This document shows positions 21,567 to 28,837 of a stretch of 64,000 bases of DNA, piece after piece. The stretch comes from Shigella phage CT01. The stretch is taken from the sequence record OK018184; one strand, given 5' to 3'. The stretch's first letter is position 1; each line of letters opens with the position of its first letter. The notes under the pieces are model-generated. The model searched no databases, was not told where the DNA came from, and saw only the letters and a list, made by a program, of their open reading frames with translations. The translations under genes were made by a program, and so were the position numbers.

Positions 21567-22024
21567 TCAGCCTTATATTCAATAACAGGACATACTTTAG
21601 CTTTACGCGTTTTTAAAAATTCGACGATAATAGATTTCTTGGGTTGAATAGGAGGTAAACCTTTATACGCCCTATCAATATTTTCTACATGTAAAGCATA
21701 ATCCTTTTTCCATTTATAATCTTTATATTTTTCATGTAGTTGTGCAGGAATAACAAATGAACCGATAATAAGTAAAACAAGAAAAATGGCAAGTATAAAT
21801 GCTGATGGAATAAGAGTCCATAAACTACCAAAAATAAGCCATTTCTGCATGATTTCTGCGCAGATGATAGTTAGACCTGCGAGTATAGTACATCCGAAAA
21901 AAGAAACGAAAAATGTAGGAATAACAATAGACCAAAAATACGCGCACAGTGTCTTAGGTCGTTTCCATTCATCATTAAACATTTTGAATAATTTATAGTG
22001 CCAAGAGCTTTCATTAATAATCAT
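21563..22024 (-). CDS. hypothetical integral membrane protein
   Basis: 153 aa with several hydrophobic segments. Confidence 0.5.
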   Translation of the reverse strand: MIINESSWHYKLFKMFNDEWKRPKTLCAYFWSIVIPTFFVSFFGCTILAGLTIICAEIMQKWLIFGSLWTLIPSAFILAIFLVLLIIGSFVIPAQLHEKYKDYKWKKDYALHVENIDRAYKGLPPIQPKKSIIVEFLKTRKAKVCPVIEYKAE

Positions 22025-22026
22025 AA

Positions 22027-22548
22027 TTATCCTTTCATTGAAGGTGTAACAGTTGTTAAATACTTAATCATAGCCTCAGCTTCTGATTTTGATAATGAAA
22101 TTTCTCCATTGTTTTGACGAATAGAAATAAAATCAGGATGACGGTCACCACCAGCTTTTAAAACACACATATAAGTATCAGTTTCATCTTCAATATTTGA
22201 AATGATTGAAGCAGTTCCACATGAATGTGGTTTTTGATAAATCAATGCAGCTTTTCTTCCACCGTTTGACTGTTCATAAACTTTTAACACATCAAACAAA
22301 TCACTTCTTTTATCAATAGCTAAGATGTTATTTTCATCTTCAATGTTAAATCCTTCGGATACTTCATAAAGTGTCACCCATAAATCACCGATGTCAATAA
22401 CAGCATTTACTTTTCCATGACTTTCAAGAGCACGGCAAATTTTCTTGATTTCGTCATAACTCATTTTAATAATATCATCTCCTTGAATAAGGAAGATGTC
22501 ATTTTTAAATTCAACACGAATTAAACCACTTTCACTTGAAATAAACAT
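22027..22548 (-). CDS. hypothetical protein, paralog A
   Basis: 173 aa; C-terminus ISLSKSEAEAMIKYLTTVTPSMKG resembles that of the next ORF. Confidence 0.5.
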   Translation of the reverse strand: MFISSESGLIRVEFKNDIFLIQGDDIIKMSYDEIKKICRALESHGKVNAVIDIGDLWVTLYEVSEGFNIEDENNILAIDKRSDLFDVLKVYEQSNGGRKAALIYQKPHSCGTASIISNIEDETDTYMCVLKAGGDRHPDFISIRQNNGEISLSKSEAEAMIKYLTTVTPSMKG

Positions 22549-25669: not shown

Positions 25670-25855
25670 TTAAAGCGTATTCACATAAGCTATTAATTCG
25701 TTTTCTTTCTTATCAAACCGATCAGCAAATTCTTCCTGCTGTTCGGGAGATAGCGGGCCGTATTCATCATAAAAGGTGTTTGCTTCTGTATGCTCATCTA
25801 GAAGTTCATGGATAAGCTCAAACAATTTATCTTTTTGTTCTTTGCTCAGACTCAT
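25670..25855 (-). CDS. small hypothetical protein
   Basis: 61-aa acidic ORF. Confidence 0.45.
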   Translation of the reverse strand: MSLSKEQKDKLFELIHELLDEHTEANTFYDEYGPLSPEQQEEFADRFDKKENELIAYVNTL

Positions 25856-26025
25856 ATATTAATTTCCAGAAGTTTTAAAATAATTCGCTTTTGCTTAAAT
25901 ATTTCCATAGTTAAATGATCAGTATCTTTTTGACCAATTCCAATGGCAAAACCTTTATTAACAGCGAGTTCAATTAAATTATCAAGTTCACGTAACACTT
26001 CATATTGTAACTCAAAACTATTCAT
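25854..26025 (-). CDS. small hypothetical protein (57 aa), not in the ORF track
   Basis: ATG at 26025 overlaps the upstream stop (ATGA) and its stop overlaps the next ATG; hand translation MNSFELQYEVLRELDNLIELAVNKGFAIGIGQKDTDHLTMEIFKQKRIILKLLEINI. Confidence 0.4.
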
Positions 26026-26228
26026 TTTGGTTTACCTTCTTTAACGAAATCAGGATAAGCAAAAATTCCTGAATAAAATCCTTCGCCTTTATGATTGATG
26101 CATCCTTTATTAGAGCAATAGCACCAATAATCGAAATCACAAGCCATTTCATCATTGCATAAAGCAAAAACAACTGGCCATTTACACTTTTCACAATGGG
26201 CATTTTTAAGAATACTAGTTTGGCTCAT
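26022..26228 (-). CDS. small cysteine-rich protein
   Basis: ATG at 26228 overlaps the upstream stop (ATGA); cysteine-rich product CEKCKW...CNDEMACDFDYWCYCSNKGC. Confidence 0.4.
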   Translation of the reverse strand: MSQTSILKNAHCEKCKWPVVFALCNDEMACDFDYWCYCSNKGCINHKGEGFYSGIFAYPDFVKEGKPK

Positions 26229-26437
26229 AACCATGTAACCTTTAAGCAATATTCTTCTACATGTTGTTTACGACCTTTCTTATCAATAAAGGTATATTCA
26301 ACGAATGTTCCAATATAGTCTTTATCTACATCATGTGGACTATTAATTGGGCATTTAGTACGGCAAATGCGTTCCCATTGACGAATAATTTCCGCTTTAT
26401 TTTTAGGGTCAAACGGATGCGGGTAATGTGCTTTCAT
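26225..26437 (-). CDS. small hypothetical protein
   Basis: 70-aa ORF. Confidence 0.4.
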   Translation of the reverse strand: MKAHYPHPFDPKNKAEIIRQWERICRTKCPINSPHDVDKDYIGTFVEYTFIDKKGRKQHVEEYCLKVTWL

Positions 26438-26888
26438 AATCCACCACTATTAAATCAATATCAGGAGTAAACATGTCGATTAATTTAGAAACCTTATCCC
26501 AATCGCCTCCAGCAATACCGCAACCTATGCGTGGAATATAAATTACTGGTTTAAACAAAAGGGTCTCTGCCTGTAGATTTAATTCTATCATGCAGTTTAC
26601 TAAAGCACCATAATCAAGATTAGGACCCGGTTCGTATTGTGTATACAGGTTATAGCATATACCAAATCCTGTAGGATTATGTTTAAAAACAATAGACATA
26701 TCGCCTAATTTATCACGAGAACCGTACTCGGTAGTGGTTTTATCTATTTCTAAAATTTTGGGATAGGCTCTTGCTAATTGACCCGCTACACCAGAGCCCA
26801 TTGTGTGGAAGCAGTTGCATCCGTGCGCAATAATATTACCTTGAAGAAATAGGGCGACAATATCGCCCTTGATATATTTTACAATCAT
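26409..26888 (-). CDS. macro-domain-like protein (putative ADP-ribose binding or hydrolase)
   Basis: 159 aa with glycine-rich motifs GNIIAHGCNC...MGSGVAGQLA and IPRIGCGIAGGD that resemble macro-domain ADP-ribose binding loops. Confidence 0.5.
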   Translation of the reverse strand: MIVKYIKGDIVALFLQGNIIAHGCNCFHTMGSGVAGQLARAYPKILEIDKTTTEYGSRDKLGDMSIVFKHNPTGFGICYNLYTQYEPGPNLDYGALVNCMIELNLQAETLLFKPVIYIPRIGCGIAGGDWDKVSKLIDMFTPDIDLIVVDYESTLPASV

Positions 26889-27226
26889 CTAGTACTCAAT
26901 CCTCGATTATAAGAATCTACCAAACGGTCAACCATTGAATGACAAGCGGCTTTATCTTTCTCCTCCGCAACTGAACATTCTAAGGTATTCCACTTTTTAG
27001 CATATCGTTTTAATAAAGTATCATTTTTGTATCTGCTTGATTTATCTCTTTCTCCGTCTTTATATGCATATATTAATTTCTGCGCAAATTCAGCTTGGCA
27101 TGCTTTATTTTTCCCACAATAATCCGCGGCAGTACGGTTTACATACTCTCTAATTTCAGTGTATGATGTATTTGCTAACGCAGAAAATGAAATTAATCCT
27201 ACACATAAAACCAAAATTTTAGTCAT
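26885..27226 (-). CDS. secreted/periplasmic hypothetical protein
   Basis: 113 aa with an N-terminal signal peptide MTKILVLCVGLISFSALA. Confidence 0.5.
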   Translation of the reverse strand: MTKILVLCVGLISFSALANTSYTEIREYVNRTAADYCGKNKACQAEFAQKLIYAYKDGERDKSSRYKNDTLLKRYAKKWNTLECSVAEEKDKAACHSMVDRLVDSYNRGLSTR

Positions 27227-28258: not shown

Positions 28259-28292
28259 AAATTATACCACAGTCAAGAGGAAAAGTAAACAG
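28259..28292 (-). promoter_or_regulatory. T4 early-type promoter
   Basis: Minus strand reads GTTTAC, an 18-nt spacer, then TGGTATAAT. Confidence 0.5.
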
Positions 28293-28571
28293 TTATTCTT
28301 TAAATCTAATCAATTTATTCATAGACTTTGTAACTTCTGCACGAACCTCATGTAAGTTTTTAAGCTGTTCAAGACGCTGCTCATAGTAAGCAATTTCATC
28401 TTCTTCGAGACAGTCCTGTGAATCTTCTTTAAGATAACGTGCATAGTCCTGGAAAGCTTTACGGACTACTTCCTGGAAGTCATCAAGACTTTGAATTTTC
28501 TTAGGAGCAACAGATACACGACGAGGGGCAGTATAATACTCATAACCAAACCCTGCGCTTAATTGAGCCAT
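28293..28571 (-). CDS. hypothetical protein
   Basis: Internal ATG at 28571 overlapping the upstream stop; the track ORF extends to 28613. Confidence 0.4.
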
Positions 28572-28837
28572 TAATATTTTTCCTCTGGTTGAAACACAGC
28601 ACGACAAGCCCACATACTAGCTTCTTTGAGTTTCGTTTTAGCAATAGTTAACTGATCGATGCTTTCAGCATAATTCTTCGCGAATTCATAGTCTTCACAA
28701 TTATTTAGCACTTCCCAGAATTCGTCGTATAAAGCATCAAAGATAAGTCCTAAACGAACTTCAGCATCTTTGATAGCATTCACTTTACCGATTTTCTCTT
28801 CAGTATGTGGCTTATAACCCTTAATATCTTCAATCAT
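28571..28837 (-). CDS. hypothetical protein (positional candidate for a Vs.4/Acb2-like protein)
   Basis: 88-aa ORF, second gene downstream of regB; the assignment is by gene order only. Confidence 0.4.

Follow-up and report, generated by a model that had tools for sequence, protein, structure and literature searches.

The gene between vs and tk.3 in the genome of Shigella phage CT01 (sequence record OK018184) raises the question of what a small phage protein with two glycine-rich loops acts upon, and with what chemistry. The DNA that we analyzed, here called the window, is a stretch of 64,000 nucleotides from this record. According to its open reading frame list, the gene starts with ATG and encodes 159 amino acids; the translation carries GNIIAHGCNCFHTMGSGVAGQLA at residues 17 to 39 and IPRIGCGIAGGD at residues 118 to 129. 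An initial annotation, made from the sequence alone, had quoted both loop motifs and likened them to the ADP-ribose-binding loops of macro domains. Both are present exactly in the product; the strand, which had been left unstated, is minus.

Locus and orthology

The window belongs to a Tequatrovirus (T4-like phage). The 3.3 kb around the gene are 98% identical to many Escherichia, Shigella, and Yersinia phage genomes, and the gene order on the minus strand, regB, vs.1, vs, tk.4, tk.3 ... tk, is that of T4 and of one related Tequatrovirus genome. PHROG scans identified the neighbors as the RegB endoribonuclease, the valyl-tRNA synthetase modifier, and thymidine kinase. BLASTP aligned T4 Tk.4 (NP_049723) with the window protein at 58% identity (local alignment, E = 1e-70), and this significant, full-length similarity comes together with the vs/tk.3 position in a Tevenvirinae genome. 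Flanked by vs and tk.3 in a Tequatrovirus genome, the window gene is, by position and similarity, the ortholog of T4 tk.4. Coordinates are collected in Table 1.

TABLE 1 Features of the tk.4/adfM locus, in window coordinates
Feature	Position	Strand	Basis
tk.4/adfM coding sequence	26409..26888	-	Open reading frame, Pfam Macro, PHROG 335, synteny with T4, AlphaFold2
ATGA overlap, vs stop/tk.4 start	26885..26888	-	vs ORF 26885..27226, tk.4 ORF 26409..26888
H22-G23-C24-N25 codons (H-x-C-N motif)	26814..26825	-	Alignment with macrodomains
First glycine-rich (phosphate-binding) loop, T29-M-G-S-G-V-A35 codons	26784..26804	-	Aligns with GxG loop of DarG, TARG1, and SCO6735
Gln84 codon, CAA	26637..26639	-	Column of catalytic Lys of DarG (K80) and TARG1 (K84); equals SCO6735 Gln85
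Second glycine-rich (diphosphate/distal-ribose) loop, P119-R-I-G-C-G-I-A-G-G-D-W130 codons	26499..26534	-	Codons read individually
Divergent allele cassette	~26437..26846		Nucleotide identity to T4 38-73% inside, 92-100% on both flanks (sliding window)
Sigma-70-like promoter TTTACT-17-TATAAT with upstream TG (TGnTATAAT), ahead of regB	28261..28289	-	Consensus match only

The overlap of the tk.4 start with the vs stop suggests translational coupling with vs, and the promoter-like site ahead of regB is a likely early promoter of a regB-vs.1-vs-tk.4 transcription unit. A promoter and terminator scan of the region gave site counts no higher than in shuffled sequences, so the timing of tk.4 expression rests on T4 synteny. 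Taken with the coupling to vs and the site ahead of regB, that synteny suggests that tk.4 is made early, along with regB, vs.1, and vs, which are early/middle genes. The earlier placement of the gene in an "early accessory region" is a reasonable one, as the T4-like gene block regB-vs.1-vs-tk.4-tk.3-...-tk includes it.

In the records of Escherichia phage vB_EcoM_P8 (4410-4802) and Shigella phages SHFML-26 and SHFML-11, tk.4 is annotated as a protein of 130 amino acids starting at Met30. In this version the two N-terminal strands are missing, as is the invariant H-x-C-N motif. The window has the 159-residue frame intact, with an N terminus that is conserved across the Tk.4 family; the shorter form in several GenBank records is probably a start-codon misannotation.

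Fold

The Pfam Macro profile (PF01661) matched the tk.4 product at E = 5.8e-8, with 33.1 bits (gathering threshold, 22), over profile positions 2 to 117 of 118, and PHROG 335 matched at E = 1.6e-71. A sequence search of the PDB returned BT1257 (1.6e-10), yeast Poa1p, SCO6735, Mycobacterium tuberculosis DarG, and human TARG1; a profile of the Tk.4 family strengthened all of these matches. The AlphaFold2 model, built with 43 homologs, has a pLDDT of 93.7 and a pTM of 0.88 and adopts the three-layer α/β/α macro fold. When it was compared with the PDB by Foldseek, the best matches were TARG1, BT1257, Poa1p, and DarG (E values of 1e-9 to 1e-7, TM scores of 0.7 to 0.8). Chance cannot account for so close a resemblance to macro domains, and the macro domain with ADP-ribose-binding loops that had been read from the sequence was confirmed by an HMM search against the Macro family, structure prediction, and a fold search.

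In both structure and sequence, the nearest neighbors are TARG1, DarG, Poa1p, SCO6735/Bt_1257, and ALC1; the MacroD, PARG, and viral classes are more distant. We conclude that the tk.4 product is a stand-alone, single-domain macrodomain of the ALC1-like/TARG1-like class.

Known functions of T4 tk.4 and PhiKZ gp104

A1pp is the old name for the macro domain. RefSeq describes T4 tk.4 as "phosphatase; Tk.4; contains A1pp phosphatase motif"; the initial annotation was right about the macro domain but had not recognized a T4 gene that has long carried this label.

DarT2 ADP-ribosylates thymidines in single-stranded phage DNA, blocking replication. Earlier work had found that T4 withstands DarTG2 even without adfA and adfN and had predicted one more factor. 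In the HIDEN-SEQ preprint of November 2025, a T4 transposon library was screened on DarTG2-expressing E. coli, with tk.4 as the sole significant match; T4 was sensitized to DarTG2 by a clean tk.4 knockout, and the preprint gave the gene its new name, adfM, for anti-DarT factor Macrodomain (bioRxiv 10.1101/2025.11.20.689424). Removal of ADP-ribose from DNA by T4 AdfM was proposed by analogy, the T4 evidence being genetic (bioRxiv 10.1101/2025.11.20.689424). That a phage macro domain might counter ADP-ribosylating host toxins had been suggested for the window gene as well, and this agrees with the screen and the knockout of the T4 ortholog (bioRxiv 10.1101/2025.11.20.689424). The window gene is the already known tk.4/adfM, and DarTG2 protection has been published for the T4 allele only.

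PhiKZ gp104, independently named AdfM in a 2026 Cell Reports paper, frees an oligonucleotide of DarT2-made thymidine-ADP-ribose in vitro, with reduced activity in the N23A variant (PMC13309987); the paper makes no mention of T4 or tk.4. Like Tk.4, gp104 is a phage-encoded stand-alone macrodomain; it counters DarTG2, and it is imported into the phage nucleus.

The tk.4 allele of the window

Globally aligned, the Tk.4 proteins of the window and T4 are 56.6% identical, whereas the flanking proteins are close to those of T4: Tk, 99%; Tk.3, 94.3%; Vs, 95.7%; Vs.1, 99.4%; RegB, 99.3%; and Vs.4/Acb2, 95.5%. The divergent cassette has its 5' junction inside tk.4, the first ~14 codons of which hardly differ from T4 in nucleotide sequence. 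Such divergence inside conserved flanks points to a recombinational cassette exchange. T4 Tk.4 has 155 residues; both proteins are single macrodomains and have all family-invariant residues in common. The window protein differs by a four-residue C-terminal extension, and the last 29 nt at the 3' end of its gene overlap the start of the downstream tk.3, compared with 4 nt in T4. The second glycine-rich loop reads PRIGCGIAGGDW in the window protein and PRIGAGIGKGNW in T4 Tk.4; that of the window is nearer the family consensus.

The two alleles are part of a wider distribution. A tblastn search of GenBank phages found the Tk.4 family in 2777 records from many genera; about 312 of these hold the window allele at ≥90% identity, with intermediate alleles at ~76% and T4-type alleles at ~58%.

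Beside the 5' edge of the cassette, within codons 7 to 13 and in the near-T4-identical part of the gene, positions 26851-26869 form a perfect 7- to 8-bp GC-rich inverted repeat, AGGGCGA-TATTG-TCGCCCT, with a T-rich run after it. It was flagged as terminator-like on both strands. The repeat could be due to chance, could be an RNA structure, or could be tied to a recombination junction.

Active-site residues

The Tk.4 family was aligned with the PDB sequences of M. tuberculosis DarG, Thermus aquaticus DarG, TARG1, BT1257, SCO6735, and Poa1p, and with PhiKZ gp104. Conservation was counted over the window protein and its 120 best homologs (121 sequences in total), 119 of which cover the His22 and Asn25 positions. 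Both residues are present in 119/119. His22, Cys24, and Asn25 align with H24, C26, and N27 of SCO6735, and Asn25 also corresponds to Asn23 of PhiKZ AdfM. In the first loop Gly33 is invariant and Gly31 nearly so; in the second, Gly122, Gly124, and Trp130 are invariant, as is Gln84 (121/121). SCO6735 and BT1257 share a signature composed of H-x-C-N, the glutamine, and PRIGCGLAGGxW; the corresponding PRIGCGxAGGxW pattern of the Tk.4 second loop matches PRIGCGLAGGTW in SCO6735 and PRIGCGLAGGKW in BT1257. With a glutamine at the DarG/TARG1 catalytic-lysine column and the conserved asparagine, Tk.4 has the residues of the SCO6735/Bt_1257 Gln type (Q84/N25, compared with Q85/N27). The placement of Gln84 in the Tk.4 pocket, as judged from sequence and from structure-based alignment to solved homologs, would be equivalent.

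SCO6735 releases ADP-ribose from thymidine, but not from guanosine, in single-stranded DNA, doing so faster than DarG or TARG1, and it rescues E. coli from DarT (PMC9411070). The Q85A and Q85E variants are inactive and N27S is nearly so; the proposed catalysis uses a backbone-positioned water instead of a lysine (PMC9411070). Each residue with proven catalytic importance in SCO6735 is conserved in Tk.4.

The likeness has limits. SCO6735 and Bt_1257 (PDB 5E3B and 2FG1/2AFC) are chromosomally encoded, whereas Tk.4 is phage encoded, and they are ~27 to 29% identical to Tk.4. Their mobile loop, five residues longer and bearing the DNA-binding Lys89, is absent from Tk.4, in which the loop is of DarG/TARG1 length, and Lys34 of SCO6735 is replaced by Ser32; the DNA-substrate handling of SCO6735 is therefore not directly transferable. 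On these alignments, Tk.4 is best described as combining a Gln-type (SCO6735-like) active site with a scaffold of DarG/TARG1 length, and its chemistry is probably of the SCO6735 type rather than the DarG type.

Relation to DarG and to the PhiKZ namesake

The best defense-related match of the tk.4 product was the macrodomain part of the DarG models. The NCBIfam DarG model (NF048014) gave 27.8 bits, against a cut-off of 250, with the match confined to model positions 2 to 142 of 338; the PADLOC model gave 4.5e-7, again over the macrodomain part only (positions 3 to 144 of 329). In the DarG macrodomain (M. tuberculosis, 5M3I; T. aquaticus, 5M31) the catalytic residue is Lys80, where Tk.4 has Gln84, and DarG carries a C-terminal domain that binds DarT and is linked to a darT gene, neither of which is the case for Tk.4. 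No darT lies next to tk.4 in the window, where the neighbors are vs and tk.3. A bacterial homolog in Pelagimonas, checked for an adjacent darT or a prophage, is a lone gene amid housekeeping genes, with no darT. With a score far under the cut-off, and without Lys80, the C-terminal domain, or an adjacent darT, Tk.4 was rejected as a true DarG or an orphan DarG copy.

PhiKZ gp104 is of the DarG type: its FPTK motif keeps the lysine, and the histidine of H-x-C-N is absent, whereas Tk.4 has Gln84 and His22. By these residues, the two proteins named AdfM are members of different sub-clades. The shared name could confuse annotation.

Poa1p and the phosphatase label

The RefSeq wording raises the alternative that Tk.4 is an ADP-ribose-1''-phosphate phosphatase like yeast Poa1p, clearing the by-product of RNA 2'-phosphotransferase. 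Among the Poa1p residues probed by mutation, His23 is kept (His22 in Tk.4) and Ser30 is conservatively replaced (Thr29), but Phe152 is lost (Ala126). Poa1p has a serine at the Gln84 column and a large insertion that Tk.4 lacks, and at the Gln84/Ala126 columns Tk.4 also differs from the Lys84/Asp125 dyad of human TARG1/OARD1. The "phosphatase / A1pp motif" label derives from the old domain name, not from an assay, and DarTG2 sensitivity is the sole known tk.4 phenotype. A primary function of this kind was rejected on the column differences and the missing insertion, and we regard it as very unlikely; the "phosphatase" database label is historical and probably misleading.

Proposed function

We consider it likely that Tk.4, as the T4 tk.4/adfM ortholog, hydrolyzes DarT2-made thymidine-ADP-ribose on phage single-stranded DNA with an SCO6735-type active site. 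In the proposed mechanism, the host toxin DarT2 would ADP-ribosylate the N3 of thymidine in single-stranded DNA, at TNTC motifs, on replicating phage DNA. The two glycine-rich loops of Tk.4 would bind the ADP-ribose, and the invariant Gln84, held by Asn25, would set the distal ribose in place for cleavage through a water molecule. Hydrolysis of the ribose-thymine bond would release ADP-ribose and leave the DNA replicable again.

The macro fold, the orthology and synteny with T4 tk.4, and the SCO6735-type residue conservation come from the present analysis; the activity of Tk.4 on thymidine-ADP-ribose is suggested by analogy to its relatives. PhiKZ gp104 strips DarT2-made ADP-ribose from DNA in vitro, so such a strategy exists in phages. 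Weighing against the proposal, the window allele is only 56.6 to 58% identical to the T4 allele, the catalytic lysine of DarG and TARG1 is missing, and so is the longer mobile loop of SCO6735. We infer that the 57%-identical window allele does the same job as that of T4.

Protection by Tk.4 might instead come mainly from binding and inhibition of DarT2, with hydrolysis of the DNA adduct contributing little. Catalytically dead SCO6735 Q85A, DarG K80A, and TARG1 K84A all inhibit DarT in vitro, SCO6735 most strongly and by interaction (PMC9411070); since Q85A retains this ability, protection by Tk.4 need not be purely catalytic. A rapid turnover of tk.4 alleles would also suit co-evolution with a protein partner. 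Nevertheless, we judge toxin binding as the main route to be unlikely: the 159-residue protein lacks the DarT-binding domain of DarG, matching only the macrodomain positions of the DarG model, and the residues needed for SCO6735 catalysis are invariant in the Tk.4 family, which argues for selection on enzymatic activity.

Another reading is that Tk.4 reverses ADP-ribosylation of protein or RNA (the marks of phage Alt, ModA, and ModB; uracil-ADP-ribose on RNA; or marks on host protein), activity on DNA being secondary. T4-like phages encode ADP-ribosyltransferases (discussed in PMC9503650), which counts in its favor. SCO6735 and TARG1 also remove Glu/Asp-linked ADP-ribose from protein (PMC9411070) and uracil-linked ADP-ribose on RNA; SCO6735, however, strongly prefers DNA over protein substrates (PMC9411070). 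No phenotype ties tk.4 to protein or RNA marks, and the earlier idea that the gene regulates the phage's own ADP-ribosyltransferases has no support here. CmdT, an mRNA ADP-ribosyltransferase, modifies adenine in a manner described as irreversible. According to the CmdTAC paper, phages of the T-even family, which are tk.4 carriers, are still sensitive to CmdT, and macrodomains occur in that paper only among the references (PMC11618068); an action of Tk.4 against CmdT was rejected on these grounds. As a principal role, protein or RNA de-ADP-ribosylation seems to us distinctly improbable, while as a side activity of Tk.4 it is possible by analogy with SCO6735 and TARG1.

Finally, Iyer and colleagues argued, from genomic context, that low-molecular-weight ADP-ribose derivatives are what the majority of phage Macro domains act on (PMC9503650), and some sources name Tk.4 homologs "O-acetyl-ADP-ribose deacetylase." Tk.4 would then degrade compounds such as O-acetyl-ADP-ribose, cyclic ADP-ribose isomers, or immune signals, and might act against Thoeris. 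Neither the structural neighbors nor the HMM scores support a small-molecule substrate or the degradation of Thoeris-type NAD-derived signals, which the initial annotation had also put forward; we hold such a role to be extremely unlikely. Hydrolysis of thymidine-ADP-ribose on DNA is the function that we favor.

Other features of the region

Upstream of tk.4, at 28571-28837 on the minus strand, lies the ortholog of T4 vs.4 (95.5% identical), which is annotated as anti-CBASS protein 2 (Acb2) in a related phage record. With vs.4/Acb2 and tk.4/adfM 1.7 kb apart, the early region holds at least two counter-defense genes.

Between tk and tk.3, positions 25670-26249 of the minus strand hold a block of small open reading frames unlike that of T4, encoding proteins of PHROG 653, 3452, and 2306. 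Positions 25679-25856 are 69% identical to T4 tk.2 (54% in protein); for 25857-26223, blastn found nothing similar in the T4 tk region, and the window lacks T4 tk.1. The product of 26022-26249 is cysteine rich (CEKC...CNDEMAC...CYCSNKGC), which suggests a small zinc-binding protein.

Further away, T4 carries the homing endonuclease gene mobD in the segment that corresponds to 21568-22529 of the window, and blastn did not match the two stretches. The window has two open reading frames of 153 and 173 amino acids there instead, and mobD appears to be absent or replaced in the window.

Implications

The gene itself is nothing new: the macro/A1pp annotation of T4 tk.4 is two decades old, and the DarTG2 function was assigned in 2025. 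What the present analysis adds is the assignment of a Gln-type active site, the separation from the PhiKZ namesake, and a sharply bounded allele replacement. On this assignment, AdfM of the T4 type would use a glutamine active site and is no copy of DarG, whereas its PhiKZ namesake has retained the lysine of DarG. At least two highly divergent tk.4 alleles exist among T4-like phages, and conclusions drawn from the T4 allele need checking on that of the window.

A bolder reading, which we offer tentatively and to which we give only a small chance, is that Tk.4 represents a third mechanistic type of DNA de-ADP-ribosylase, combining a Gln-type site with the short DarG/TARG1 loop, and that the bounded allele swap reflects an arms race. 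If so, tk.4 alleles would differ in substrate range, among thymidine-ADP-ribose in DNA, uracil-ADP-ribose in RNA, and, through toxin binding, variants of DarT2; alternatively, they would serve to evade sensing or blocking of the macrodomain by a host factor.
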